Source: a virus (taxonomy: Duplodnaviria; Heunggongvirae; Uroviricota; Caudoviricetes). From it: 41,997 nt of DNA. The first letter of the stretch is position 1. Every line of letters begins with the position of its first letter. A program made the translations under genes and the position numbers. The notes below the pieces were generated by a model. It was not told the origin of the DNA. It did no database searches and saw only the letters and a program-made list of their open reading frames with translations. The stretch lies in the IMG/VR virus record IMGVR_UViG_2698536372_000019, positions 1-41,997 of that record. One strand, given 5' to 3'. Below, in pieces: positions 1,283-40,516 of this stretch.

Positions 1283-2247
1283 GCGTTGATGTATTGCTGG
1301 AACGGCACATTTTTACGTCCACCGGACGCTATCAGGATGCCGTTCTCCCGTAACCAGGCAAACAACGCGTTTTGCTTAAGCCCAACAACCTTTGCAAAAT
1401 TTCCAATCAGGATCCCCTTGGCCACTGATACCCGGTCGGCAAAATCGACTTTAGGGGCGGCGGCCACCAGCTGCTGATTTAGCTGGTGGGCTTTCTGTTC
1501 CAGAAGTTGCTTTTGTTCAGCCAGTTCGGCAGCCAGGCGCAGAGCTTCGGGAAGCGTCTGGGGGATTGCGATCGGTTGCTGTTCTTTTTGTCGGAAGTAG
1601 CTGTCTTCCAGTTTTTCAAAGAATGCCCACGCTTCATTTGTGTCCACGATCTTAGACATGCGTGCCGCTCCGCGCTCGGCCCAGAGAATTACCTGACTTG
1701 TATATTTGCTAACCAAGTGACTAATAGTCACTAGCCTTTTAAATTCCTTTAATTTTGAACCAGTTAAGAGATAGTAATGCTTACCTTCTTCAAAGCGATC
1801 GGGGTTGCGAGACAAATTTTTACGAATATTCGCTTCATCGGTCCCATACCCTTTAGCAAGAGTCTCAGTTGTCACTACACGCACTCCCAGCCATTCCAGA
1901 ACGGGAATTTCATCAGACTGATTCTGAACAACCACCAGCTCCGATTCCTGAACTGAAGGTGCATGAATTTTCTCTGATTTAACGTTAGTTGCTTTCATTC
2001 TGTGTGCCTCCTTGCGTGCTTCGGCTGCGACGGTTGCGTAATTCAGATGACCCTGTTCGAGCAGGTATTCGCGGATATCAGACAACAGGATACGGTGAAC
2101 CGCGTTCTTGTCCTTTCTCCGGTAAAGTTGTTTGGTGATCATGAAGTAGTTGGCAATAACGCCAGGTATATCCCTGGTGCTGATACAGATTGTGTGCTGT
2201 TCAATTGCCTCGATCATCTCTTCACGGGTGACTAATGACTTTCTCAT
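1283..2247 (-). CDS. ant: anti-repressor Ant, variant M1a, 3'-truncated at J1
   Basis: ATG 2247-2245 with GGAGGG RBS; N-terminal domain, ORF6N-like middle ...GYGTDEANIRKNLSRNPDRFEEGKHYYLL..., KilAC-like C-terminal region cut at ...NVPFQQYIN. Confidence 0.75.
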
Positions 2248-2803: not shown

Positions 2804-4288
2804 TCATTCATTAAGCCATGCCAGAGCTTCATCAACCTGCGCTTCGTCTTCGACGCTAAGCACTTCATCTTGGGGAACATAGTTCGCCAACATAGCGAAA
2901 CAATATGTATCCCAATGGTCCGGTGAGTGCAGGTTGAGTTTTTTCTTCATATCTTCCTTTGACATCACCTTCCATTGACCTGCGGAATTTATCCCTACCG
3001 GTATCTTTGATGCTTCCTCTATAGTCGCAGCCCCCTTATCAAGCCGCATACGCCCTGATTTTACAGCTTCTGCCGCCTGAATATTCGCGAAAGCGCGCAT
3101 ATCGAAATAAAGGCTTTTATCTTCACGGCTGTGCATCTTTTTACCCCAGCGGATACGCTGGACGGTAATACCATAGCGTTCGTACATCAGATCAGCCGTC
3201 GATTTCCCCAAGCCATCGCCATCAATAGCTATGGTTATGTTCGGGAACCGTTCTGGGTTACATTCTGCGAAAATCTTGGCGGCTAACTGCGTTTCTGTAA
3301 CGTCTGTGTATTCCAGCATACGATAGTTGATTACACGGCGTTTATTTCGCTGGCCGGACACCATCATGATATTAATAACGGACTTATCTCGTCCTGTGCC
3401 ACCAGCAACGTCAACACATGCAACCCAGCCCCATCCTTTGGCAATCTTGACCTTTCGCCGCGTCGCCCGCTCAACCTCATCACGACCAAGAAGAAAGCCA
3501 TCTTGAGATTTGGGAAATTCACCACGTACTTTGATCATGTACATGGGGTTATCACGACCGCCATACTCCGCAAGTTTTGCTCGTATAAATTTTGCATCTA
3601 CAAGCGGAGATTCTTCACTATTCAGTATTATCGCAGTAAACAATCCATCAGGATTTCCCGGGCGAATAGCTAGTCTGTGGTGTGAATCGTAGAAATAGCC
3701 TGAAGGTCGCGTAGGCTGGGAAAGAAGCAGAATACGGTTATCCTTACCGGTCAGCGCACCTGTTATCACACTGAATGCTTTATCACTCACACCCGACGCT
3801 TCGTCGATGATATACAAGAGATGATCGGCGTGTTCACCAGCCAACGCCTCCTCATTTCCGGGGCGACAGGACTTTATCAATATTGTCCAAACACCCTTGC
3901 CAGTCACCTCAAAAAAAGACGTTTCTGTAAGAATGAAATACTTCGACAACCACGGGAATCTGCTAACAGCAGTAGCCCAATTGCTCTTTATGTATTTGAA
4001 AATACCATCAAGGACTTGCTGTCTTTTGTTAGCGACCAGAATAACGCGAGCGCCGGGGAAAAACATGATGAAGAGTATTGCAATGATACTCGTCATATCC
4101 GACTTACCAGTACCATGGCCGGAGGTCACACTTGTCCAACTGCCGTCCTGCTGCGTGGACTCAATGATCTCATCCTGCTGCCAGGTTGGTGTCTTCCCAA
4201 ACAACACATCAGCGGCCGCAATCCAGTCATAACGATATAGCGCCACCAGCTCGCGCCAACGTGGGTCCGTTACGCAACTTCTGGCCAT
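2804..4288 (-). CDS. pacB: terminase large subunit PacB (494 aa)
   Basis: Walker [10 protein letters not shown]; length and position after pacA as in P1. Confidence 0.9.
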
Positions 4289-5481
4289 TAATCATCATCC
4301 CCGTACAGTTTGCGGGTAACTTCTTCGTCTTCCTCCTCGTTTTCGTCCAGATCCTGTTCAAGCCATGCTTCGTTTGATATGCCTTCCGCATCGACATCAC
4401 CATAACCACCTGTATCGACGATATCGGCAATTTCTTCTCTACGATGCTCAATCCACAATGCGGCATCAGCGCGGCGGCTGGCGGCCCGTTCTCGCGCAAC
4501 TTTGTCCAGATCTTCAAGAGAAGGGCCACCGACGGCTGTTTGCCTTTCCTCATCATCGGTATTGGTCTTAGGAGCACGCAGATCGGCTTTGATTTGCTCC
4601 AGCATCAGGGGCGGAACTTTCCCACCATGCGCCTCGATGAATTCAGCTGCTTCCAGCACTGACCAGTTATTTTCACGCTTTCGTTCGTATGCCAGCTTAA
4701 CAATGCCAGCTTGCCCCATAGATAAAGCGTGCTTTTCCGCCTCCCGGCTTTCTTTTCGATAGTTATTCCGGATGCTGTAAATGGTGTTGATCAGACTGCT
4801 TATCTGCGCGGAACAGCTGTTTAGCATGCTCGCGATACGGTATTCAGGCGGAGTACCTTCATCATCGTCTTTTTGCTGATCGCGCATTTCCTGCACCAGG
4901 CGAATACACGTATCCCTGGCGTTCTCCAGCATAAGGAGATGAGAAAGAGACTTTTCAAGAAGAGTGGTTTCCAGAACATCGGCCCCGGACCGACGCAACA
5001 TAGCGCGCGCGGCCTTCCGCGCTTCAACGTTATCTATCAGGTAATCGCCAGCTTCGAATTCAAAGCGTTCACCATCATCATCCAGGGTGTCGCGTTCCAG
5101 GCGATCACGTAAGGTCCGGTGGGCGCGGGTGATCACGTCATGATCATCAGAACGATCATTTATGCGCTTATTTTGGCGCTTCGCATTCTCGACTGCGGCA
5201 CTGACAACGGCATTAACCCTTTGTTTTTCCGTTATTTCAGCCGCAATGTGATCACCTGCATGTTGATCATTAGAGTGATCAATGATCATGCTTTTTAGTG
5301 GCTTCCTGACTGGCTTATTTGGCTTGCGGCTGTCCGCTGTCCTGGTGTCTTCTTTGAAGGCACGGAGATAACGACGTGCAGTATTAGGGTTAAGATTAAA
5401 CTCGGCGGCATACTGTGCGATGGTGTAACCACCATCTCGCGCCAGGCGAGCAAAATTCTTCTTGTGATCGTCCCAGGTCAC
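4288..5481 (-). CDS. pacA: terminase small subunit PacA (397 aa), contains the pac site
   Basis: [39 protein letters not shown]...; acidic C-terminus; hexamer clusters inside the gene. Confidence 0.9.
5102..5288. other. pac: P1-type pac site: two clusters of four TGATCA/TGATCG hexamers, each containing GATC
   Basis: hexamers at 5102, 5130, 5141, 5153 and 5249, 5264, 5276, 5283, separated by about 90 bp. Confidence 0.85.
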
Positions 5482-5516
5482 TTATGCTTCCTTTCGTAAA
5501 AACTCTTTTTGACGCG

Positions 5517-5536
5517 AGGGTAACGAAAGTCACATG
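5517..5536 (-). promoter_or_regulatory. late-promoter-like element upstream of pacA (CATGTGACT, 5 nt, TACCCT)
   Basis: same motif and spacing as the three CAAGTGACT sites on the plus strand. Confidence 0.45.
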
Positions 5537-5566
5537 TCAAAAGGCCCGGAACGGGCAAGCAATCAA

Positions 5567-6019
5567 TCAGATACGTGCGGATGTGGCATTACCGTAATGA
5601 CGGTGCTGACGGGCCACCTTATTGAAAAGTTGACGCGCCATTACCCAAGGCTGGTGCTCCCGGCGTTCCTTTTCGTCCTGCGTCATATAGAGTTCGTTCT
5701 GGAGTTTTTCATCAAACCGGCGCGGAGCGCGGCTACGGCGAAAGAATTCAGGATTCAGAGAGTGGATCTGAAATCTACGTGGGCGTGTACTGTCATCAAT
5801 CAAAACAGACGAATACTTAGACACAGCGATAGCCTTTAAGCGCAGATAAACATCGCGCTTATCGACATCCAGATGCGGGTATTCCTTTTCAAGAATTGCT
5901 GCGAGTTCTTTCGCTGATAGAAGAGATTTAGTGCGGATCATGTAATCCGCAATCTCGTACGATGTTATTCGTGAGTGATTTATTTCCATGAAGTGGCGTC
6001 CCTGCCAGTTAAGTAACAT
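5567..6019 (-). CDS. lpa: late promoter activator Lpa (gp10-like, about 150 aa)
   Basis: position directly upstream of pacA and size as in P1; exact start not verified. Confidence 0.7.
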   Translation of the reverse strand: MLLNWQGRHFMEINHSRITSYEIADYMIRTKSLLSAKELAAILEKEYPHLDVDKRDVYLRLKAIAVSKYSSVLIDDSTRPRRFQIHSLNPEFFRRSRAPRRFDEKLQNELYMTQDEKERREHQPWVMARQLFNKVARQHRHYGNATSARI

Positions 6020-6089
6020 CCTGTCACCTACTGATTAGCCCATGTCAACTAATCAACGTGGAATATAATACCCTCGATTAAAGAAATAG

Positions 6090-6106
6090 CAATACATTAG
6101 AGCAAT
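6090..6106 (-). promoter_or_regulatory. C1 operator-like site upstream of lpa (14/17)
   Basis: CAATACATTAGAGCAAT on plus strand. Confidence 0.45.
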
Positions 6107-6107
6107 T

Positions 6108-7151
6108 TTATCTAACACTCGACGAGTGACTTGTGATAGCGCCGACTCCAAGCGCGTAATCAAAGAACAATCGTTGATGCATCGCCAGCCTACCGTGCGT
6201 CTTCTCCCAATTATCGCGGTCACGCTCAATATCACGCTGGCATGACTGGCACAGAGGAATTGCGTAAATGTCATGCGCGCATAATCGACTATGACGAACG
6301 ATATAAGGCGTAATGTGAGCGCCAGCTCCCGCCGCTCCACACCCACAGCATGGACGGGAAGCAACAAAGTCCATGTACTCAGGTAATTTTAGCGATTGCA
6401 GTTTTGGTATTTTGAAATGCGCCATGCCAGGGTCGGAGTCAACATCCACAGGGCATACTTTTGCACGCATCGGCGCGGCGCGTTCTTCCATCATCTGAAC
6501 ATATGCTGTAGCGCGATCGTCATACGGGCGAATATCCGCCTCTTTCAGAGGTCCGCTATCCTGCGTTGCGGCTTTCATCTTATTTATTGATATACGGCAA
6601 ACTTCTTCCGGCATCAGGTGCATCATGTTGCGCATGAAAGCCCACCAGCACAGTTCCTGAATACTTAAATCATGGCCATCTGAAAGCCCCATTTCCTGAC
6701 GGGCGACATCCAGTATCCAGTTAACGCGATTATTATGCAGCGTTTCTTTCAGCTCATTAAAACCACGCATCCGGTAATGGTTATCGTGATGCCAGCACAA
6801 CAACACCGCGCTATTGTCTCGTTCAGCGTGGACAATATGGTTGTCACACCAGCTACGATCTGCGGCCTGGCATTGCCCCTCTTTCCTGCGCAACCACGCC
6901 ACCAGCGCGTCAATTCCACCAATACGGCGAAACAGTTCATCGCTGTTAAAAAACGGCTGCAACGCCTCATTTGTTGCCATGGTTTGCTCGGTAACAACGA
7001 GGCCGTCTTCCATGTGCTCGATTAACTCACGCGGCACCGGCTCCATAATAAATTTACGGCCAGCCTCCACCAGCTTTCTGACCTCCTGATCCACTTTGAA
7101 CGTGGCGAGGCCAAGCTCTTTCTGTACAAAGGGAGTAATTACGGCTTTCAC
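6108..7151 (-). CDS. hypothetical 347-aa protein with C-terminal Cys/His-rich motif (P1 pdcB position)
   Basis: long ORF; CCGCG...H...C..C..C motif near C-terminus. Confidence 0.55.
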
Positions 7152-7178
7152 ATCACACCTTTAATCACTGATTGGGCT

Positions 7179-7379
7179 TTATCTGCTGCCCGGCATTCTC
7201 TGTTTAAGCACTACCATTTCCTGACGGCATAACACAGCAATAGCGGTCCTGGCACCAATTTGCTTACCAACCAGGTATTGCTTTACCTCGCGGCGACTCA
7301 CGCCATCAAGAAGCATCTTTAACGCTTCACGGGACAATTTGTTGTATTTGCGTGCCATTAATCTACTCCGCAGAACCAT
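7179..7379 (-). CDS. small basic protein, possible HTH (P1 pdcA position)
   Basis: 59-66 aa ORF immediately downstream of doc. Confidence 0.4.
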
Positions 7380-7743
7380 ACAATCTACGTAACGTGTCGG
7401 CGACAGAAGATACAGATATCTCTCCGGTCGCAGCCCCTACGGTAAGGTCTGCCAGTTCAGGTGAATCAAATACCTGCACCCCGTTACGGCGTAGAAATAA
7501 CAGCGCACTGTTTAGCGCGGTACGCTTATTGGCATCATTGAATATATGCCCTCTCGCTGTAGCCACCAGGTAGGTGGCGGAGACTTCGAAAAGGTCGGTG
7601 ATCTCTTCGTAGGCAACTCTGGCCTGAACTCTCCCGATAATGGCCTCTGCCCTACCCGGATCTGACATTCCCGGCAGGCCGCCGTAGCGGTTTATATTCG
7701 CATCATGAAGCGCAATAAGTTCTTCCGGTGATATATGCCTCAT
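7363..7743 (-). CDS. doc: Doc toxin (Fic-fold kinase), 126 aa
   Basis: [17 protein letters not shown]...[10 protein letters not shown]... matches P1 Doc as I recall it, including the Doc-type Fic motif. Confidence 0.95.
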
Positions 7744-7964
7744 TATCGGTTAACCAGTTCCTTGTTGGTGGAGTCCAGGGTGTCAAACAGGGATGCAAAT
7801 TCAGCATCCAGCGCCGCTTTTTTGTAGGCTTCGAAAGTAGCCTTGCTGACAATTACTGCTGGCTCACGGCCTCTGCGGGTGATTTCAACCTCTTCCCCGG
7901 CTTCAACATTGTTGAGCACTTCAGAAAGGTTGCCACGCGCGGTACGGAAGTTAATGGATTGCAT
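7743..7964 (-). CDS. phd: Phd antitoxin, 73 aa; stop overlaps the doc start
   Basis: [73 protein letters not shown]. Confidence 0.95.
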
Positions 7965-8036
7965 AAACACCTCGTGTACTCGTTATGTGTACACAATTAT
8001 AAACTTCACAGGCATAAAGCACCAGCACTTTGCAGC

Positions 8037-8426
8037 TTAAATCACCGGACAATCATCAAATTCCCCACTTCGGGCATCATTGATGACATGAGTGATCACA
8101 CCAAAAACAGCATTACTACCCGTGTAACCATCGTCATCTACTGGTAACGCCTCTTTCTTCCCGGTGCTTAAATCCTCCAGGTGCTGGCGCGGATACTTCC
8201 TGTATCTCTTTATGCGATATTCACCCTCCATAGCGCACACAAGCAGAGAACCATCAACCGGAGTAAGCGAGGAATCAACCACCAGCAAAGCACCCTGCAA
8301 TATTCCCTCACGGTGATGGCTATCAGCTGCCCGCATGAAGTAGGTTGCTGATGGATGTCTAATTATCTGCTGATCAAGAGAAATTCGGCTTTCAACATAA
8401 TCCGCCGCAGGAGAAGGGAAACCCAT
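8037..8426 (-). CDS. humD: HumD, UmuD'-like SOS mutagenesis protein (129 aa)
   Basis: S24 LexA/UmuD-like C-terminal domain; LexA box about 20 bp upstream. Confidence 0.8.
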   Translation of the reverse strand: MGFPSPAADYVESRISLDQQIIRHPSATYFMRAADSHHREGILQGALLVVDSSLTPVDGSLLVCAMEGEYRIKRYRKYPRQHLEDLSTGKKEALPVDDDGYTGSNAVFGVITHVINDARSGEFDDCPVI

Positions 8427-8446
8427 AGCGTTTTACCTCAAAAATA

Positions 8447-8462
8447 CTGTTTATCTGTACAG
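8447..8462. promoter_or_regulatory. LexA box CTGTTTATCTGTACAG (perfect CTGT-N8-ACAG)
   Basis: read directly; sits between divergent humD and the 8601 ORF. Confidence 0.8.
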
Positions 8463-8600
8463 TATACATTAAAGAAGCACCTTTGGTGCAAACGCGTTAT
8501 GTACATCAACCACCGCTGATGATTTTTGTGCGCTTTGCTACTATTCATCACCGCGGGATCAGCGTAACCTCGTTGCCAATCAGTTAATAAGGAATTAGCT

Positions 8601-8936
8601 ATGCCTAATCGCATTCCTCTCGATCCTGTATTGCCCAAAAATTTTGACTGCACTCCTAACGAGAAACGCTCTAAAGCTCAGCTGGACGCCTGGTGGGACC
8701 ATCCCTATGGGGTTACAGAACATGACGGGAAAATTGTTGTTTATTGTCTGAATGGTGGCGCGTGGGACCGTCCATCCGTGCTTGGTTTGGCAAATAACTA
8801 TGATGAAGCCTGTGAACTTGCCGAAAGACAGCAGGCAAGCTGGGTAAAAACACGGTCTGAACCGACATTCATGTTTTCAAAAGAACCGCCATTTATACTG
8901 GCGAGGATGCCGCAGCGACCGGATCATCAACAATAA
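8601..8936 (+). CDS. hypothetical 111-aa protein divergent from humD (possibly LexA-regulated)
   Basis: RBS TAAGGAA before ATG. Confidence 0.55.
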   Translation: MPNRIPLDPVLPKNFDCTPNEKRSKAQLDAWWDHPYGVTEHDGKIVVYCLNGGAWDRPSVLGLANNYDEACELAERQQASWVKTRSEPTFMFSKEPPFILARMPQRPDHQQ

Positions 8937-8966
8937 ATTGTTGCTGAATTTTCCTCAAGGGATGAG

Positions 8967-9182
8967 ATGAATCTCTTCTCATTAAAGCAGGAAGAAAGGG
9001 ATCGCGTCGAAGTGTCTCCAACTCTCGACCACAACCGGATGAACCTGGCCCAACTCGCCTGGTACAGCAAAGAATTAGAGATGTCTATTGCCCGACTTGA
9101 AAACGAAAAAGCCGCTATCCAAGCCCAGCATGAAGTAGTTCTGAACCGGATTAGAGAAATGCAAAACGATAATAGAGGCTAA
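8967..9182 (+). CDS. hypothetical 71-aa coiled-coil protein
   Basis: RBS AAGGGA; no similarity to theta/HolE that I can see. Confidence 0.4.
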   Translation: MNLFSLKQEERDRVEVSPTLDHNRMNLAQLAWYSKELEMSIARLENEKAAIQAQHEVVLNRIREMQNDNRG

Positions 9183-9242
9183 ATCGAGGTAGAAAACACA
9201 TTGTTTAAGGCCACTAATTGTGGCCTCAAAGGGGAGAGATGC

Positions 9243-9767
9243 TTATTGGCTATGGCTAAAAATCAAATGAGACACTTCATGTGGTTGTAGCTCGTCAAGA
9301 TCCGGGGCCACAAAACCTTTTCCGAAAGACTTCACAAGTAATTCACCAGCCGCATCATTGTCACCTATTACACGAAAGTCATACGGCAGCATCGCAAGTT
9401 GACGGCGTAATCCTGCGGAGAAAGTCGAACCTAACAGCGCCCACGAATTGCCGCCCGCGTTGTGTACAGCTGCGCTCTTAAAAATAGACTCAGTTATCCA
9501 TATTGGGCCATCTTTTAAAGGAAGATAGGTTCCCCAAAGTAACTGTCTGCCATGTGATCGCGTGAAATACCGGGCCATCTTCGGATTGCTATGCTGCTTA
9601 GGAGCACCTGGTCTATATGTCTGATACCCAGCCAACATCCCATCAAACCTGTATAGAGGGAATGTAACTACTCCTTCACTTTCATCGATCCACTGTCTAT
9701 ATGGGTGTATATCATGGCGGTAGTTACGAGTTAGCAAATGAGCTTCCAGCTTTCCAAATTTTGTCAT
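9243..9767 (-). CDS. Toprim-like protein (174 aa)
   Basis: ITESIF and VIGDNDAAGE (DxD) motifs; ATG overlaps the stop of the upstream gene (ATGA). Confidence 0.45.
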   Translation of the reverse strand: MTKFGKLEAHLLTRNYRHDIHPYRQWIDESEGVVTFPLYRFDGMLAGYQTYRPGAPKQHSNPKMARYFTRSHGRQLLWGTYLPLKDGPIWITESIFKSAAVHNAGGNSWALLGSTFSAGLRRQLAMLPYDFRVIGDNDAAGELLVKSFGKGFVAPDLDELQPHEVSHLIFSHSQ

Positions 9768-10069
9768 ATTCCGTTCTTCCTGCATACTGGGCATGTGTTC
9801 TCTGTGAAATATGGGAAACTATTATCCAGCTCATCTACCCACTGTTTATGGTCGAAGCAGAAAAATATCTCCCACGGCATTCCATATTCTTCCATCCATA
9901 GGCGGATCTGCATTTCTATTGGAATCGGCGGTATTGCAGACACCATATCAACAGGATAACAGTTCAGACGACGTTCCAGTTCTTCTACTCTCTTCTGGAG
10001 ATGAAATATCCGATCCAGATGCACACGCCGCTCCCGTGCCATTTTAAAATAAAGCTCGCCGGTCATCAT
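9764..10069 (-). CDS. small coiled-coil/zinc-ribbon protein, paralog A (101 aa)
   Basis: C-terminal W..F.C.DH..W.DELD.SFPYF.E..CP.CR shared with 10069-10353; TAATG coupling. Confidence 0.5.
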   Translation of the reverse strand: MMTGELYFKMARERRVHLDRIFHLQKRVEELERRLNCYPVDMVSAIPPIPIEMQIRLWMEEYGMPWEIFFCFDHKQWVDELDNSFPYFTENTCPVCRKNGI

Positions 10070-10353
10070 TAACTCCTACATTCAGGGCAAGAGTTCCCTT
10101 CCGCAAAATAGGGGAAACTGCTATCAAGCTCATCACACCATCTGCGATGGTCGTAGCACCAAAACGCCTCCCACGGTGCACGGAAATACTTCATCCACCA
10201 GGACACTCGATCAGGTATATCTGCTGGTGGCAGCTCTTCTGGCAATAATTTGCCTGATAATTCCCTTTCCGCCCGCGCCAGCATTCCTTTTAGACTCGCA
10301 TTCTCTTTTTCAAGAATATCTATGCGCGCCTGTAACTCAGCTTTCGTTGGCAT
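10069..10353 (-). CDS. small coiled-coil/zinc-ribbon protein, paralog B (94 aa from internal Met)
   Basis: ...WEAFWCYDHRRWCDELDSSFPYFAEGNSCPECRS; the first 27 codons of the six-frame ORF are probably not translated. Confidence 0.5.
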   Translation of the reverse strand: MPTKAELQARIDILEKENASLKGMLARAERELSGKLLPEELPPADIPDRVSWWMKYFRAPWEAFWCYDHRRWCDELDSSFPYFAEGNSCPECRS

Positions 10354-10540
10354 GGTCCGCCTCATGCTTTTCAGCCACCAGCGGCAATAAAGCCCTGGCC
10401 ATCTTATGAACCAACAGAGCATCGATAATGCCAAGCGTATGCCCCGGCTTAATGTTTAATGCCGCCTCAAGGTGACACCTTTCCAGGTCACTTTTCTCGG
10501 CTTGTTTATGATGGTCTGGCGTAATAACGTCGCCCAAAAC
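10337..10540 (-). CDS. 3' end of a gene truncated by the N-run
   Basis: ...PGHTLGIIDALLVHKMARALLPLVAEKHEADHANES; upstream part lost in the gap. Confidence 0.35.
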   Translation of the reverse strand, partial: VLGDVITPDHHKQAEKSDLERCHLEAALNIKPGHTLGIIDALLVHKMARALLPLVAEKHEADHANES

Positions 10541-12050: not shown

Positions 12051-12127
12051 TAAACAGGTGGCAGGACGTGACGGGGTTAGCAGACTGGCGATTGTGAAAC
12101 CAGCAGGCCGAAGCCTCCCCATCACGC
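12051..12127 (-). ncRNA. c4: c4-like antisense RNA, allele T2 (77 nt)
   Basis: same closing stem and UUCG hairpin as T1; internal segments UCACAAUC and CUGCUAA complementary to 12084-12091 and 12071-12077 partners (see finding). Confidence 0.45.
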
Positions 12128-12306
12128 CCCACCATAATTTGGGCGTAACGCGGTTTTACGGACACAAAAATACCGCAATATCGGATATCTGCGGCTGTCC
12201 GCACAATCATTCAGGCTGCTAAACCCGGTCGCAGAATTTGCTACGACGTAGGAACTATAAGCCTGAACAACAGGAAGATCAATAGTCTGGCGTCCAATAG
12301 TAGTTT

Positions 12307-12340: not shown

Positions 12341-12450
12341 AACAATCTGGTTGAATGTTTCCTCTCTGAGGTTGCAATGTGCACACTTAGTGTATTATTT
12401 GTATGCACTAATAAATATATTATTTTTAATAATAAATAATTGACAACTGA

Positions 12451-12470
12451 CAAGTGACTTCAGTCAAAAT
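12451..12470 (+). promoter_or_regulatory. late-promoter-like element CAAGTGACT, 5 nt, CAAAAT
   Basis: conserved motif and spacing shared with 13781, 36264 and (minus strand) 5528. Confidence 0.5.
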
Positions 12471-12600
12471 CATCACACGCCCGGTACGGATGGATCCCTT
12501 TTCAAATATTCCATGGACGGCACAGTCTGAGTACCGGGCGCTACCTTCAGTTGTATTGCTAAGCCGCCGCTGGTGGCTTTTCTTTTTTGTAGGGGGAGCT

Positions 12601-13242
12601 ATGGATAAGAAAATATGCGTTGTTTCGATGAGCGTCGGCAAACCGGCGTCAATGACTGCTGCATGGATCAACAATGAGCTGATCATGGCTGAGCGGACCA
12701 GCTACCCTGAACGCCGCCGCGATATGGAACTCCAGCTTCTGCGCGAATTGCGAGAAAAAGAGGAAAAGGGTTTTATCGTGCTGGTGGAAGAGGAAAACAG
12801 CTTTATTACCGGTCGAGTTGGCCAGCGTGTAAGGTTGCGCGATCCCTTCATGAACGGCAGGCCGGTACTAATTGAAGCAATGCAGATTTACAAGGAGCTG
12901 GAACGCCAGAAAGCGATCAAGTTACCGCGCAAGGAATCCGGCAAATACATCCTCCACCAAAGCATCTTCGATTCCGAACACGATAAAAAAGGCGATGAAT
13001 TTTTCAACATCAACTGGAGCGAAATAACAACAGAGCATGTTCTGACATTGTTATGCTGTTTCGCAACGGAATACAACAATGTTGCCAGCGCCGACTACAT
13101 CAGGGCAATGGCTGGAGAAGTTGAGGCCCGCCAGGAACCATCGTTACTAAGACCTCTGATTAACATAATTCACGGAACCCAAACACTGGCGCAAAAACAA
13201 GTACCACAAGGGGAATTGACGGGTAAAGGTAATTATCTCTGA
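12601..13242 (+). CDS. hypothetical late protein (213 aa)
   Basis: ATG with AGGGGGAG RBS; the six-frame ORF start at 12454 is rejected. Confidence 0.55.
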   Translation: MDKKICVVSMSVGKPASMTAAWINNELIMAERTSYPERRRDMELQLLRELREKEEKGFIVLVEEENSFITGRVGQRVRLRDPFMNGRPVLIEAMQIYKELERQKAIKLPRKESGKYILHQSIFDSEHDKKGDEFFNINWSEITTEHVLTLLCCFATEYNNVASADYIRAMAGEVEARQEPSLLRPLINIIHGTQTLAQKQVPQGELTGKGNYL

Positions 13243-13281
13243 AAGATGCCCGGCGATAGACCGGGCAAAAGGGCGGAAAGT

Positions 13282-13530
13282 TTAATCTGCATTCAGGAGC
13301 AATGCGTTATCTATGATGATCTGCTCCCATTCTTCGAATGCCCGATCGCGGACCCCCTGGGGAACACTGTTTGTTTTGAAATCAACGACTGTCCGCCATT
13401 TCCCGTCCGGACGGTACATGCGCAGAGCTTTACTGCCCCCTTCCCTTCGCACCTCAACGTTATGCTTGTCAGCAAACTCTTGTAATGCTCGTAGCGTCCC
13501 ATGCTTTACTGTGTAGTATCGCTTTTTCAA
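13282..13530 (-). CDS. small 82-aa protein, weak HicA-like pattern, TTG start
   Basis: GGAGAG RBS before TTG; ...RREGGSKALRMYRPDGKWRTVVDF...; convergent with the 12601 gene. Confidence 0.35.
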   Translation of the reverse strand: MKKRYYTVKHGTLRALQEFADKHNVEVRREGGSKALRMYRPDGKWRTVVDFKTNSVPQGVRDRAFEEWEQIIIDNALLLNAD

Positions 13531-13780
13531 GTTTTCTCTCCAGCCTGTGCCAAGGCTTTGACGTCGAAATTATGTCCTATTCGGTTTTATTGTATCAGAT
13601 AGTGTGGACATATTATTTCACGTCCGGCGTAGTCGGTCATAGCTTTTGCCTTCCACCTTTTCCACGCCGTATCTAATCGGCGCCCGATGAAATGTTATTG
13701 CACTAATATATTTCAATATTTCGCTGACACTTGAACAGCGAAACACCCCCATAGATAGCTTGTTCATTGGTAATCCTTAA

Positions 13781-13800
13781 CAAGTGACTAGTGTTAAATT
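13781..13800 (+). promoter_or_regulatory. late-promoter-like element CAAGTGACT, 5 nt, TAAATT
   Basis: upstream of the portal-like gene. Confidence 0.5.
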
Positions 13801-13833: not shown

Positions 13834-16564
<2,731 letters not shown>

Positions 16565-16569
16565 CCACC

Positions 16570-16632
16570 AAAAATAACCCCGGCGGCTGCCGGGGTATCT
16601 GAAATCACTGGCGGCCGAAAGGCCGCCTTTTT
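16570..16632. terminator. back-to-back rho-independent terminators
   Basis: plus strand GGCGGCCGAAAGGCCGCC + T5 (16610-16632); minus strand CCCCGGCAGCCGCCGGGG + T-rich (16570-16594). Confidence 0.65.
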
Positions 16633-16639
16633 AATTTAA

Positions 16640-17055
16640 TCACTCAGCCGCTACTGGTTTTAACAAACCAGCATCAAGTAGCTTGCGAGTTAACCACTGC
16701 TGGCCTTTACCCGTTAATTGGGGCGTCAGCCGTATCTGGTAACCATCTTCATCATCCAGCACCACTTCTTTCACCGTGAAATACCCGGCGTTGATGTACT
16801 GCTGGAACGGCACATTTTTACGTCCACCGGACGCTATCAGGATGCCGTTCCCCCGTAACCAGGCAAACAACGCGTTTTGCTTAAGCCCAACAACCTTTGC
16901 AAAATTTCCAATCAGGATCCCCTTAGCCACTGATACCCGGTCGGCAAAATCGACCTTAGGGGCGGCGGCCACCAGCTGCTGATTTAGCTGGTGGGCTTTC
17001 TGTTCCAGAAGTTGCTTTTGTTCAGCCAGTTCGGCAGCCAGGCGCAGAGCTTCGG
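16640..17055 (-). CDS. ant: Ant C-terminal (KilAC-like) fragment, 5'-truncated by the N-run
   Basis: ...AAPKVDFADRVSVAKGILIGNFAKVVGLKQNALFAWLR...KPVAAE stop. Confidence 0.6.
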
Positions 17056-17066
17056 NNNNNNNNNNN
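17056..17066. other. assembly gap J4 (11 N)
   Basis: sequence on the two sides is unrelated. Confidence 0.95.
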
Positions 17067-17220
17067 GCTGAACATTTTGTGATGAATGCAACGGAGGAGG
17101 AAGCGCGGCGAGGGCTTACTAGAGTGATGGCGGAATTTGGCGAACTCCTGGGTAAGGTAAACAATGCCCTTTCAATCAGTTCAGCAAGATCCAAAGCGTT
17201 AACAGCTTCCATGATGAAAT
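17067..17220 (+). pseudogene. orphan 3' end of an unidentified gene (...MAEFGELLGKVNNALSISSARSKALTASMMK stop)
   Basis: open frame enters from the N-run and ends at TAA 17218-17220. Confidence 0.3.
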
Positions 17221-17221
17221 A

Positions 17222-17247
17222 AAAAAGCCTGGCAAGGAGCCAGGCTG
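17222..17247 (-). terminator. hairpin AGCCUGG-CUCCUUG-CCAGGCU followed by a U-run on the minus strand
   Basis: read directly. Confidence 0.5.
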
Positions 17248-17352
17248 CACAAAAGAGCGGGTTTGTATTCCGCATCCAATCAATCAAGAAAGAGTATAGC
17301 ACACAGGTACTGAAGTGAAAAAATGTGATTCTCGATTAACAAAATATCTACC

Positions 17353-17376
17353 ATTGCTCTAATTGATTGCTATAAT
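17353..17376 (+). promoter_or_regulatory. C1 operator-like site (14/17) overlapping a TATAAT -10
   Basis: ATTGCTCTAATTGATTG then CTATAAT. Confidence 0.45.
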
Positions 17377-17436
17377 TGAGCCGCAGTTTTTGTCAACTAC
17401 GAAGACGTTGCCATTATAGACTCCGTGACATCATTG

Positions 17437-17460
17437 GCGGCCGAAAGGCCGCCTTTTTTA
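17437..17460 (+). terminator. GGCGGCCGAAAGGCCGCC + T6
   Basis: same hairpin as at 16610. Confidence 0.6.
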
Positions 17461-19445: not shown

Positions 19446-19495
19446 AGTTACGGCCTCATGTACAGGTTTAACAACCTGCTACCCGCTGTCAAACA

Positions 19496-19572
19496 GGTGG
19501 CAGGACGTGACGGGGTTGACAGACTGGCGTACATGAAACCAGCAGGCCGAAGCCTCCCCATCACGCCCCACC
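19496..19572 (-). ncRNA. c4: c4-like antisense RNA, allele T3 (77 nt)
   Basis: differs from T2 only in two short segments that co-vary with the icd leader. Confidence 0.45.
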
Positions 19573-19745
19573 ATAATTCGGGCGTAACGTGGTTTACGGA
19601 CACAAAAATACCGCAATATCGGATATCTGCGGTTGTCCGCATGTACATTCAGGCTGTCAAACCCGGTCGCAGAATTTACTACGACGTAGGAACTATAAGC
19701 CTGAACAACAGGAAGATCAATAGTCTGGCGTTCGATGGTAGTTTA

Positions 19746-36111: not shown

Positions 36112-36200
36112 TTTCGCCATTCAAATTTCACTATTAACCTACTGTTTTTAAAGTAAATCCATCTAAAATTTCAAGGTGAAATCGCCACGATTTCACCTTG
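36112..36200. other. parS: parS centromere (ATTTCAC heptamer and TCGCCA hexamer boxes around an AT-rich IHF-like core)
   Basis: TCGCCATTCAAATTTCACTATTAAC ... GGTGAAATCGCCACGATTTCACC. Confidence 0.85.
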
Positions 36201-36263
36201 GATTTTACCTTCCGTCCCTACTCCCGAAAAAAATAATAAAATTGCTTGTCACGAGAAAGTCAA

Positions 36264-36283
36264 CAAGTGACTTTCAATAAAAT
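36264..36283 (+). promoter_or_regulatory. late-promoter-like element CAAGTGACT, 5 nt, TAAAAT
   Basis: upstream of the head/sheath operon. Confidence 0.5.
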
Positions 36284-36313: not shown

Positions 36314-38041
36314 TTGTGTTTAAGGAAGAGTAAATTGAGTAACTTACGCGAATACCAGAATCGTATTGCAGATATCGCAAAACGCTCTAAAGCTGTGCTT
36401 GGCTGGGCAAGCACTGCGCAGTTCGGTACTGATAACCAATTCATTAAAGATGATGCCGCGCGTGCCGCATCTATCCTTGAAGCTGCACGTAAAGACCCGG
36501 TTTTTGCGGGTATCTCTGATAATGCCACCGCTCAAATCGCTACAGCGTGGGCAAGTGCACTGGCTGACTACGCCGCAGCACATAAATCTATGCCGCGTCC
36601 GGAAATTCTGGCCTCCTGCCACCAGACGCTGGAAAACTGCCTGATAGAGTCCACCCGCAATAGCATGGATGCCACTAATAAAGCGATGCTGGAATCCGTC
36701 GCAGCAGAGATGATGAGCGTTTCTGACGGTGTTATGCGTCTGCCTTTATTCCTCGCGATGATCCTGCCTGTTCAGTTGGGGGCAGCTACCGCTGATGCGT
36801 GTACCTTCATTCCGGTTACGCGTGACCAGTCCGACATCTATGAAGTCTTTAACGTGGCAGGTTCCTCTTTTGGTTCTTATGCTGCTGGTGATGTTCTGGA
36901 CATGCAATCCGTTGGTGTGTACAGCCAGTTACGTCGCCGCTATGTGCTGGTGGCAAGCTCCGATGGCACCAGCAAAACCGCAACCTTCAAGATGGAAGAC
37001 TTCGAAGGCCAGAATGTACCAATCCGAAAAGGTCGCACTAACATCTACGTTAACCGTATTAAGTCTGTTGTTGATAACGGTTCCGGCAGCCTACTTCACT
37101 CGTTTACTAATGCTGCTGGTGAGCAAATCACTGTTACCTGCTCTCTGAACTACAACATTGGTCAGATTGCCCTGTCGTTCTCCAAAGCGCCGGATAAAGG
37201 CACTGAGATCGCAATTGAGACGGAAATCAATATTGAAGCCGCACCTGAGCTGATCCCGCTGATCAACCACGAAATGAAGAAATACACCCTGTTCCCAAGT
37301 CAGTTCGTTATCGCGGCTGAGCACACGGTACAGGCGGCGTATGAAGCACAGCGTGAATTTGGTCTGGACCTGGGTTCCCTACAGTTCCGCACCCTGAAGG
37401 AATACCTGTCTCATGAACAGGATATGCTGCGTCTTCGCATCATGATCTGGCGTACTCTTGCGACCGACACCTTTGACATCGCTCTGCCGGTTAACCAGTC
37501 CTTTAATGTATGGGCAACCATCATTCGTGGCAAATTCCAGACTGTATATCGCGACATTATTGAGCGCGTTAAATCTTCTGGTGCGATGGGGATGTTTGCT
37601 GGTGCTGATGCAGCATCTTTCTTCAAACAGTTGCCGAAGGATTTCTTCCAGCCAGCCGAAGACTATATCCAGACTCCGTATGTTCACTACATCGGTACCC
37701 TGTTCGGTAACGTGAAAGTGTACGAAGTACCTGCTGGTATTTGTAAGAACTTAACGACAGAGAACATTCAGTTCAGCTCGATGGATGTGCTGTGCTACGT
37801 CCGTGATGAAAATCCGGGTAAAGCAGGCTTCGTGACTGGTGATGCTGTCCCGGCTATCCCGTTCCAGCATCCGACCACTCCGGCGCTGGTCAACCGTACC
37901 ACACTGTGGGGTTCGGCTATCAACGATATGCACCCACGCAACGGCGCTGATTACTTCACTCGTGTAACGCTGACAATGGCCAAAAAAGGCGGGCTTAACT
38001 TCATAAGCGGCGACACGATTGATGCCGGTGACTCTGAGTAA
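36314..38041 (+). CDS. putative major head protein (P1 gp23 position), about 568-575 aa
   Basis: first late gene after parS; start may be TTG 36335 after AAGGAAGAG; identity is positional. Confidence 0.45.
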   Translation: MCLRKSKLSNLREYQNRIADIAKRSKAVLGWASTAQFGTDNQFIKDDAARAASILEAARKDPVFAGISDNATAQIATAWASALADYAAAHKSMPRPEILASCHQTLENCLIESTRNSMDATNKAMLESVAAEMMSVSDGVMRLPLFLAMILPVQLGAATADACTFIPVTRDQSDIYEVFNVAGSSFGSYAAGDVLDMQSVGVYSQLRRRYVLVASSDGTSKTATFKMEDFEGQNVPIRKGRTNIYVNRIKSVVDNGSGSLLHSFTNAAGEQITVTCSLNYNIGQIALSFSKAPDKGTEIAIETEINIEAAPELIPLINHEMKKYTLFPSQFVIAAEHTVQAAYEAQREFGLDLGSLQFRTLKEYLSHEQDMLRLRIMIWRTLATDTFDIALPVNQSFNVWATIIRGKFQTVYRDIIERVKSSGAMGMFAGADAASFFKQLPKDFFQPAEDYIQTPYVHYIGTLFGNVKVYEVPAGICKNLTTENIQFSSMDVLCYVRDENPGKAGFVTGDAVPAIPFQHPTTPALVNRTTLWGSAINDMHPRNGADYFTRVTLTMAKKGGLNFISGDTIDAGDSE

Positions 38042-38101
38042 TCAGGGGAAGTTCTCCGTTTAACATAGCGCCCCCGTGCGGGGCGCATAACAGGGAAAGT
38101 T

Positions 38102-39691
38102 ATGTCTCAATATTCAATTCAACAGTCATTAGGTAATGCATCCGGCGTCGCGGTTAGCCCGATCAATGCCGATGCGACGTTATCTACCGGTGTTGCATTA
38201 AATAGCAGCTTGTGGGCTGGTATTGGCGTATTTGCGCGTGGCAAGCCGTTTACTGTTCTTGCGGTTACTGAGTCCAATTACAAAGATGTTCTCGGCGAAC
38301 CGCTGAAGCCGTCTTCCGGCTCACAGTTCGAACCAATTCGCCATGTATACGAAGCTATTCAGCAAACGTCAGGTTATGTTGTTCGTGCTGTTCCGGATGA
38401 TGCGAAGTTCCCGATTATTATGTTCGATGAATCAGGCGAACCGGCTTACAGTGCGTTGCCATACGGTTCTGAAATTGAACTTGATAGTGGCGAAGCCTTT
38501 GCTATCTACGTTGATGATGGTGATCCGTGTATTTCACCTACCCGTGAGTTAACCATCGAAACGGCAACAGCGGACAGCGCGGGTAATGAACGCTTCCTCT
38601 TAAAACTGACCCAGACGACTTCGCTCGGCGTGGTAACGACCCTGGAGACACACACTGTGTCTTTGGCGGAAGAAGCGAAAGATGACATGGGCCGCTTGTG
38701 TTATCTGCCTACGGCTCTGGAAGCCCGTTCTAAATATCTGCGCGCGGTTGTTAATGAAGAGCTGATTTCGACAGCGAAAGTAACAAACAAAAAATCGTTG
38801 GCGTTCACTGGCGGTACCAACGGCGATCAGTCGAAAATCTCAACCGCTACGTACCTGCGTGCGGTGAAAGTTCTGAACAATGCGCCGTACATGTACACCG
38901 CTGTTCTTGGCCTGGGCTGCTATGACAATGCGGCTATCACCGCATTAGGTAAAATCTGCGCAGATCGCCTGATTGATGGATTCTTTGATGTCAAACCGAC
39001 ATTAACGTACGCAGAAGCACTACCAGCTGTTGAGGATACCGGTTTACTTGGTACCGATTATGTAAGCTGTTCTGTCTATCACTACCCGTTCTCCTGCAAA
39101 GACAAATGGACCCAATCCCGTGTGGTCTTTGGTCTGTCTGGCGTGGCGTATGCGGCGAAAGCTCGTGGCGTCAAGAAAAACTCTGATGTCGGCGGTTGGC
39201 ATTACTCACCGGCTGGTGAAGAACGTGCCGTCATTGCTCGTGCGTCAATTCAACCGCTGTATCCGGAAGATACCCCGGACGAAGAAGCAATGGTCAAGGG
39301 CCGTCTCAATAAAGTATCTGTTGGCACCTCTGGCCAGATGATCATCGACGATGCTTTAACTTGCTGCACGCAGGATAACTATCTGCACTTCCAGCACGTC
39401 CCATCCCTGATGAATGCAATCAGCCGTTTCTTTGTCCAGTTAGCCCGACAGATGAAGCATAGCCCGGACGGTATTACTGCGGCTGGCCTGACTAAAGGGA
39501 TGACCAAACTTTTAGATCGCTTTGTCGCCTCCGGCGCTCTGGTGGCTCCTCGTGATCCTGATGCTGACGGTACAGAACCGTATGTGCTGAAAGTTACGCA
39601 GGCGGAATTCGATAAATGGGAAGTAGTCTGGGCCTGCTGCCCGACTGGCGTAGCCCGTCGTATCCAGGGCGTACCGCTGCTTATTAAGTAA
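38102..39691 (+). CDS. putative tail sheath protein (529 aa)
   Basis: size and N-terminal pattern typical of contractile-tail sheath proteins. Confidence 0.5.
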   Translation: MSQYSIQQSLGNASGVAVSPINADATLSTGVALNSSLWAGIGVFARGKPFTVLAVTESNYKDVLGEPLKPSSGSQFEPIRHVYEAIQQTSGYVVRAVPDDAKFPIIMFDESGEPAYSALPYGSEIELDSGEAFAIYVDDGDPCISPTRELTIETATADSAGNERFLLKLTQTTSLGVVTTLETHTVSLAEEAKDDMGRLCYLPTALEARSKYLRAVVNEELISTAKVTNKKSLAFTGGTNGDQSKISTATYLRAVKVLNNAPYMYTAVLGLGCYDNAAITALGKICADRLIDGFFDVKPTLTYAEALPAVEDTGLLGTDYVSCSVYHYPFSCKDKWTQSRVVFGLSGVAYAAKARGVKKNSDVGGWHYSPAGEERAVIARASIQPLYPEDTPDEEAMVKGRLNKVSVGTSGQMIIDDALTCCTQDNYLHFQHVPSLMNAISRFFVQLARQMKHSPDGITAAGLTKGMTKLLDRFVASGALVAPRDPDADGTEPYVLKVTQAEFDKWEVVWACCPTGVARRIQGVPLLIK

Positions 39692-39700
39692 GGGAATACA

Positions 39701-40516
39701 ATGAGCAAAAACTTTTTTCAATCCGGGGCATTTTTGGGGAATGGACTGTCTCGTTTCGCTTTGAACTCTGATCCTGTGCAGCTGATGGAGTCTGCCCGAG
39801 CAAGCGCCGAACAGCCAACAGATCCGGTTATTAATAATAATCCGGAACCGGCGGCACAGACTAACGATAACGTTCCATCTGCCCCGGCTCCTGAGCAAAT
39901 CCTGGAAGGGAAAGACGGTAAAGAATGGACCGTCGAACAGGCGCACCAGATGATTCTGGAAGCTGCAAATAGAAGTGCTATGCAGAATGCGTTGAGTGAT
40001 GCGGCCGACGCCGTTTTCGCCTGGGCTGATAGCGGTGATCTGACTTTCGACTCCCTTGATGGTTTCGTTCAGGCTATCGCTGGTATCTCTGATGACGACG
40101 ACTCCGAAGTTACAGAAGAACAGGACGATGCCTATAACGAAGCATGGGCAAATGTTGCTGACTTCCTCGCAGCATGCGGTGTAGATGATGACCTGATCGA
40201 AGCACTGGCTGACGATGAAGACGACGACGCAGCTGCTGATGTTGGTGCCTCTATCGCTGGTTTAGATAGCGACGACCGTGACGAACTGGAAGCGGCGTTT
40301 GTTGTTGCTGGCACTTCTGATGAAATGCTGACTGAAGCATTTAAGAAGGTTGTTCGTAACGGTGAGATCAAACTCATCCGTAAACGCCTGCGTAAAAAAC
40401 GTCTGACTGCGGCTCAAAAATCGGCGCTGAAAAAAGCGCGTCGAAAAGCCCAGACGGGTGCGGCAAAACTTGCCCGCAAAAAGTCAATGAAACTGCGCCG
40501 TAAGCGCCTTGGCTAA
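39701..40516 (+). CDS. acidic protein with strongly basic C-terminal tail (271 aa)
   Basis: Asp/Glu-rich body; ...KLIRKRLRKKRLTAAQKSALKKARRKAQ... tail. Confidence 0.5.
   Translation: MSKNFFQSGAFLGNGLSRFALNSDPVQLMESARASAEQPTDPVINNNPEPAAQTNDNVPSAPAPEQILEGKDGKEWTVEQAHQMILEAANRSAMQNALSDAADAVFAWADSGDLTFDSLDGFVQAIAGISDDDDSEVTEEQDDAYNEAWANVADFLAACGVDDDLIEALADDEDDDAAADVGASIAGLDSDDRDELEAAFVVAGTSDEMLTEAFKKVVRNGEIKLIRKRLRKKRLTAAQKSALKKARRKAQTGAAKLARKKSMKLRRKRLG

Follow-up and report, generated by a model that had tools for sequence, protein, structure and literature searches.

Four short elements in the stretch of DNA analysed here (41,997 nucleotides, the whole of which is referred to below as the window) are very probably Lpa-dependent late promoters, orthologous to LPmat, LPpro, LP23 and LPpac of phage P1, to judge from their sequence and their position. 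The original prediction had recognised in them the Lpa-dependent late promoters of P1, and comparison with the P1 annotation placed the four sites precisely on these promoters. As such, the finding is already known: late promoters of P1 were correctly recognised in a P1-like element. Biology learns nothing new from it, since both P1 late promoters and Lpa have been in the literature from the early 1990s on and the reference genome annotates them. For annotation, its value is that the starts of four late transcription units are fixed and that the Lpa regulatory circuit appears intact in this P1-like plasmid. Of modest further value are the observations that the box found at these promoters tracks the activator, that the long start of Mat in the P1 record appears to be wrong, and that a terminated and possibly conserved leader lies between LPmat and mat.

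Four probable late promoters in a mosaic P1-like element

Direct reading of the four sites gave the same layout at each, namely the dinucleotide AC, a 9-bp box, a 4-nt spacer and a -10-like hexamer (scores in bits refer to the 21-nt weight matrix introduced below):

12450..12470, plus strand: LPmat-type late promoter, box AAGTGACTT at 12452-12460, spacer cagt, hexamer CAAAAT at 12465-12470; 23.5 bits
13780..13800, plus strand: LPpro-type late promoter, box AAGTGACTA at 13782-13790, spacer gtgt, hexamer TAAATT at 13795-13800
36263..36283, plus strand: LP23-type late promoter, box AAGTGACTT at 36265-36273, spacer tcaa, hexamer TAAAAT at 36278-36283
5517..5537, minus strand: LPpac-type late promoter, box ATGTGACTT at 5535-5527, spacer tcgt, hexamer TACCCT at 5522-5517

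All four are intergenic and oriented toward late operons (mat, prt/pro, 23/22/21 and pacA/pacB), and their neighbouring sequences are mutually unrelated. Transcription would start near 12477, 13807 and 36290 on the plus strand and near 5510 on the minus strand, leading into the following genes:

12601..13242, plus strand: mat (maturation control), downstream of the 12450 promoter, 95.6% identical to P1 Mat
13843..16564, plus strand: operon of prt (portal) and pro (head processing), 98.8% (Prt) and 99.4% (Pro) identical to P1 by tblastn
36335..40516, plus strand: genes 23 (major capsid), 22 (sheath) and 21, 99.8%, 99.6% and 96.4% identical to P1 gp23, gp22 and gp21 by tblastn
2804..5481, minus strand: pacA and pacB (packaging), 98.0% (PacA) and 100% (PacB) identical to P1 by tblastn

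The original prediction had described a 9-mer repeated at four late-operon starts and followed by 5 nt and a TANNNT-like hexamer. Three exact copies and the copy ahead of pacA do carry a hexamer at a fixed spacing, but a further exact copy at 1714 had been missed. Likewise, the hexamer is of the TANNNT form at three of the sites and reads CAAAAT at 12465, and the spacer is 4 nt long; the 9-mer of the prediction is the canonical box shifted one base to the left, which explains its count of five. Over the whole window this 9-mer, CAAGTGACT, occurs exactly four times, always on the plus strand (1714, 12451, 13781 and 36264), with 0.26 copies expected, and none of 100 dinucleotide-preserving shuffles reached four. 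The class of one-mismatch copies is meaningless by itself, given that its 10 matches are close to the 8.3 expected, so the copy ahead of pacA (CATGTGACT, 5528-5536 on the minus strand, with one mismatch as predicted) must rest on the composite motif, and its score with that motif did bear it out.

The composite motif was represented by a 21-nt weight matrix trained on ten annotated P1 late promoters. With this matrix the four sites reached 23.5–26.2 bits, whereas no other position in the window exceeded 13.0 and none of 100 shuffles exceeded 19.3. As four of the ten training sites are orthologues of the window sites, we built a second, non-circular matrix that left these four out and kept the other six P1 late promoters, which lack an orthologue in the window. 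The four sites then ranked 1 to 4 among ~84,000 positions (20.4, 20.2, 17.3 and 13.7 bits), the last of them, the 12450 site, being inseparable from background on score alone, since its hexamer begins with C.

The P1 GenBank record AF234173 lists eleven late promoters, in each of which a '-22 region' of 9 bp is followed by a '-10 signal', 4 nt away except in LPhot, where the spacer is 9 nt. The -22 regions extracted from the record are AAGTGACTT-type boxes. This record (AF234173/AF234172) is reportedly the one of Lobocka et al. 2004. The LPmat site aligns with P1 2676-2696, annotated as 'late promoter LPmat', and differs from it by a single base that turns the CAGAAT of P1 into CAAAAT. The 21-mers of the other three are identical to P1 17249-17269 ('late promoter LPpro'), 58825-58845 on the minus strand ('predicted late promoter LP23') and 90154-90174 ('late promoter LPpac'), LP23 being the only one of the four labelled as predicted. 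At all four sites we thus found a -22 box that is an inverted repeat of 9 bp and of the type AAGTNACTT, followed 4 nt on by a -10-type hexamer, and a position orthologous to an annotated P1 late promoter ahead of a late operon on the same strand. According to PMC10695390, all 11 late promoters of P1 have an inverted repeat of 9 bp which is conserved and is the Lpa-binding site. The late genes of P1 are Lpa-dependent, and some of them have sigma-70 promoters in addition (PMC8198154, PMC8201110).

Judged by its nucleotide sequence, the window is a mosaic P1-like (Punavirus) phage-plasmid, a relative of P1 and not P1 itself. In Megablast comparisons with phage records and in a local blastn map, long stretches were 97–99% identical to P1 (AF234173), interrupted by DNA that is absent from P1. 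The stretches placed by the blastn map are:

2806-9168, corresponding to P1 92885-86523
12403-13211, corresponding to P1 2629-3437
13624-16596, corresponding to P1 17093-20065
28463-41931, corresponding to P1 66645-53177

Compared to P1, the syntenic places are without res/mod, darB, hot (together with LPhot) and the lydD/lyz/ssb region (together with LPlyz), and the missing P1 segments are replaced by other DNA (9168-10372, 13211-13624 and 16596-17460) that includes ant-like genes, giving this element extra antirepressor modules with respect to P1. The remaining P1 late promoters are either beyond the genome coverage of the window or in segments absent from the element.

The immunity genes of the element are also multiplied. 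There are four C4 antisense RNA genes, all on the minus strand (954-1041, 2520-2607, 12054-12139 and 19493-19578), and near them two c4-a1b1 target elements, two isrK matches and several icd/ant-like gene sets. Altogether the window holds about four immI-type immunity modules and P1 only one; many P1-like plasmids have two or three immI-type places each. A tandem duplication with a period of ~1566–1572 bp occupies positions 1-2807 and spans a c4/icd/ant-like module adjoining pacB, with uneven identity between the copies (97% for 272-571 against 1838-2137, only 82% in other parts).

It is within an ant-like gene that the additional exact copy of the 9-mer was found:

1714..1722, plus strand: fourth exact CAAGTGACT, not a promoter, inside the minus-strand open reading frame 1225-2247

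The product of this reading frame is 50% identical to P1 Ant1, and in other plasmids it is annotated as a KilAC-domain antirepressor. We do not count this copy as a fifth late promoter, for it lies within a gene, no -10 follows at the distance required, and neither strand gives it more than 12 bits, within the range of the shuffles. With 0.26 copies expected, about one window in four would hold at least one, so a stray copy is unremarkable. The copy belongs to an inverted repeat of 7 bp, AGTGACT-aat-AGTCACT (window 1714-1734). In the paralogous gene copy, 1.57 kb upstream, the equivalent position (near 147-171) is occupied by another inverted repeat, 9 bp long, ACAGAGTAG...CTACTCTGT. This suggests a conserved hairpin or a putative binding site within the ant-like genes.

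Other candidates were likewise set aside. The LPpro box is palindromic and can therefore be read on the minus strand, as ACTAGTCACTTGTTAAGGATT (13772-13792), but as a divergent late promoter this reading has a poor hexamer and 11–13 bits, which is the level of chance. The reverse reading does recall the box common to the divergent P1 pair LP26/LPpmgL. A site at 6122 lies inside pdcB and scores 12 bits, again at chance level. Finally, a 15-bp inverted repeat picked up by a terminator scan (36170-36202) falls in the interval that corresponds to the P1 parS region between parB and gene 23, and on this match of intervals it is probably the parS repeat and not a terminator.

The box and its activator

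The activator is encoded on the same element, as the original prediction had also stated, under the kind of control described for P1:

5567..6019, minus strand: lpa, 150 aa, product 100% identical to P1 Lpa; Pfam PF25716 BPP1_LPA, 'Late promoter-activating protein', E=3e-57
6065..6106, minus strand: lpa control region, sigma-70-like promoter TTGCTA-16-TATTAT (6092-6065) overlapping a C1 operator-like site (6090-6106), at the place of P1 Plpa/Olpa

Lpa (gp10; Lehnherr et al.) had homologues limited to P1-like elements of Enterobacteriaceae, at 64–100% identity. No sequence relative of Lpa was found in the PDB, and NCBIfam had no family for Lpa, Mat, Prt or the antirepressor. An AlphaFold2 model of Lpa built from 11 homologues is confident over approximately residues 17-96 (pLDDT ~88–93), where it presents three helices followed by a beta-hairpin, i.e. 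a winged-helix core. The structures that it resembles most are winged-helix DNA-binding domains, namely those of Fur/PerR, PadR, MarR and forkhead proteins, with weak E-values (~0.01) and ~70 residues aligning at 3–4 Å. The predicted fold fits a sequence-specific DNA-binding protein, and is no proof of a binding mode. In most Lpa homologues the initial methionine is equivalent to residue 11 of P1-type Lpa, and the Pfam model starts from residue 15; the annotated residues 1-10 (window 5990-6019, minus strand) may perhaps be untranslated.

For a comparison beyond P1 we used three diverged genomes, Cronobacter phage JK004 and the Salmonella plasmids CP053320 and CP140745, in which the proteins at the heads of the operons are 69–83% identical to those of the window. 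Lpa in the divergent homologues sampled is 64–78% identical to that of the window (67% in JK004). Although the records of these three genomes have no promoter annotation, the top match of the matrix upstream of mat, prt, gene 23 and pacA was in each of them the same box plus hexamer, with point differences from the window in the box (e.g. AAGTGACCA, GTGTGACTT and AAATGACTT) and in the hexamers, and with diverged flanks. The gap to the start codon in five P1-like genomes was 42 nt for prt in all five, 50–51 for gene 23, 35–37 for pacA and 130–139 for mat. P1 promoters that are absent from the window (LPlyz, LPs, LPsit and LP26) are likewise conserved in the diverged relatives. The motif is thus retained at orthologous places, as would be expected under selection.

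At the population level, the LPpac 21-mer is identical in 82 of the 87 P1-like loci recovered from viral and genome collections (1.48 Mb), and the matches of at least 14 bits across these 87 loci fall nearly all on recognisable late promoters. The search of viral contigs with the Lpa alignment returned near-identical loci only and is informative just for invariance within the population, and the search of genome contigs returned three loci.

A more distant case is phage D6 (MF356679), whose Lpa, a member of the same Pfam family (PF25716), shares only 31% identity. The D6 late genes have no P1-type motif upstream. Instead, their upstream regions share AAATCACAnnCT, then three bases, then an nAnnnT hexamer, a pattern with 10 copies, always just upstream of late-type genes, where shuffled D6 sequence would give 0.11. 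Among these copies are:

MF356679 19215, plus strand: D6 motif
MF356679 25220, minus strand: D6 motif
MF356679 31510, minus strand: D6 motif
MF356679 38114, minus strand: D6 motif
MF356679 72099, minus strand: D6 motif

This pattern was derived post hoc from 8 of the 10 sites, so only the remaining ones (upstream of pmgB, a ddrB-like gene and darB) count as independent. It has no copy in P1 and none in the window. The logic is the same in D6, with a conserved box at a fixed distance before a -10-like hexamer at late operons and an activator of the Lpa family, and the box varies together with Lpa, which supports the box as the specificity determinant read by Lpa.

The original prediction had found no recognisable -35 at any of the sites. 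A consensus scan returned no sigma-70-type pair of -35 and -10 at 16–18 bp spacing over any of the four, in keeping with that claim, which overlooked one hexamer at a slightly longer distance:

12440..12445, plus strand: perfect TTGACA, 19 bp upstream of the LPmat hexamer

Such a hexamer speaks for taking the four sites as ordinary sigma-70 promoters (dual in the case of 12451) that fire without Lpa, the 9-mer being incidental or merely modulatory, and the P1 record does contain a predicted sigma-70 promoter, Pmat, with a -35, the counterpart of this TTGACA, at 2666-2671 and a -10 at 2691-2696 that is common with LPmat. With its C-initial hexamer and a TTGACA at 19 bp, LPmat may indeed also fire without Lpa. 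As a reading of all four sites it is nonetheless very unlikely. None has a TTGACA-like hexamer 16–18 bp upstream of a TATAAT-like one, and three of the four are without a TTGACA-like hexamer at any usable spacing; that of LPpac (5540-5535), which runs into the box and leaves just 12 bp before the hexamer, cannot act as a -35. The distance between box and hexamer is moreover fixed across divergent genomes, and in D6 the box changes along with Lpa.

A short inverted repeat over the core of a promoter is also in the typical position of an operator, and the window is rich in matches to the C1 operator (12, with 0.24 expected), so the palindromic 9-mer could be the site of a repressor, C1 or another immunity protein, and not of an activator. 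We give this very little credence: the C1 operator-like sites are of a different sequence, 17-bp asymmetric and of the ATTGCTCTAATAAATTT type, and none of the 12 overlaps a box, the nearest being 6090-6106 and 13697-13713; the missing -35 fits dependence on an activator; and the literature (PMC1891329, PMC10695390) assigns the repeat to Lpa binding. One could lastly see the recurrence of the 9-mer as chance, or as a functionless relic of duplicated DNA. Chance explains adequately the 1714 copy, which is in a coding region without a -10, and is the best reading for that copy only. For the four promoter sites the chance of either is negligible and we reject both, as no shuffle contained four copies, unrelated flanks exclude duplication, and position and spacing have been kept where the flanks have diverged. 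Recognition of the box by Lpa is the reading that we retain. The second of the C1 operator-like sites mentioned (13697-13713, plus strand, two mismatches) is ~70 bp upstream of LPpro; its position is that of a hypothetical operator, Op(pro), in the P7 record, and the portal operon may therefore also be C1-controlled.

The mat start and the leader before it

The P1 record starts Mat at P1 2716, equivalent to window 12490, while the ATG at 12601, the gene start used by the original prediction, is equivalent to P1 2827. Among 19 close variants, the interval from the promoter to this ATG ranged over 161–164 nt through single-base changes in a G-run and a T-run. Such length variants would be frameshifts if the interval were coding, which argues for a start of mat at 12601 and a noncoding leader before it. 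In JK004 and the Salmonella plasmids, translation from the upstream ATG would be in another frame than mat or would run into a stop, and the pipeline annotations of these genomes give the short form of Mat. From these comparisons, the long start in the P1 record is probably wrong, and the real start would be the ATG at 12601, for a protein of 213 aa, which favours the start originally predicted.

The leader between LPmat and mat measures ~110–120 nt, within window 12471-12600, and is structured, with a minimum free energy of -47.8 kcal/mol (z = -2.1). Its closing stem (12481-12488 with 12532-12539) is paired in all 10 distinct sequences, and two of the pairs show compensatory double changes; when the 3' partner was slid by 1–3 columns as a control, pairing fell to 29–47%. 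At its end, immediately ahead of the mat ribosome-binding site, stands a terminator-like hairpin (12561-12579) with a U-run. The succession of promoter, leader, hairpin and mat, with a comparable hairpin of different sequence, recurred in every lineage examined, including JK004, the two Salmonella plasmids and D6. Given that these represent only three or four independent lineages, the conservation of the leader is suggestive and not established. Rfam contained no family matching the leader, and a literature search on a mat leader or terminator returned nothing relevant.

A terminator-like hairpin between LPmat and mat means that promoter activity need not equal expression of mat. Tentatively, and with rather less than even confidence, we propose that the promoter at 12450-12470 may first yield a noncoding structured leader RNA (~12477-12600) that ends in an intrinsic terminator. 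If so, the leader could be an undescribed attenuator that needs antitermination, or else a small RNA expressed late. As to the former, PMC10695390 refers to antitermination in P1 as suspected and never demonstrated.

Proposed mechanism and comparison with known systems

The four promoters can be fitted into a single late switch. Upon loss of the C1 repressor, lpa would be transcribed from its own C1-controlled sigma-70 promoter. Lpa, through its predicted winged-helix DNA-binding core, would then bind the box and replace recognition of a -35; the box would present itself to it as a 9-bp imperfect palindrome centred near -22 and preceded by AC, with no -35 hexamer at a working distance. Together with host SspA, Lpa would recruit the sigma-70 RNA polymerase to the -10 hexamer, and the outcome would be that pacAB, prt/pro, the capsid, sheath and baseplate genes (23, 22 and 21) and mat are switched on. 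In this proposal, the binding of the box by Lpa and the dependence on SspA are taken over from the P1 literature, and for the element in the window dependence on Lpa and SspA would hold by orthology. What PMC1891329 relates in its summary of Hansen et al. 2003 is that Lpa is a sequence-specific DNA-binding protein thought to contact host SspA directly, and that SspA sits on RNA polymerase without binding late-promoter DNA itself.

Promoters in which an activator stands in for the -35 are known elsewhere, in the class II-like arrangement and in the SspA/MglA-PigR model of Francisella. There, the site of the activator overlaps or abuts the -35 region and no -35 hexamer is present, and in the Francisella model the co-activator SspA bridges activator and RNA polymerase. 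The likeness to the promoters described here is a functional analogy only, with no sequence relationship, and the box in the window, near -22, is closer to the -10 than is typical of such sites. With LPmat, LPpro, LP23 and LPpac of P1, on the other hand, the four elements have in common the whole architecture (a -22 box of 9 bp and a -10 separated by 4 nt, with no -35), the positions and the downstream operons, the differences amounting to one single-base change in one of the four 21-mers, with the other three and the Lpa protein identical.
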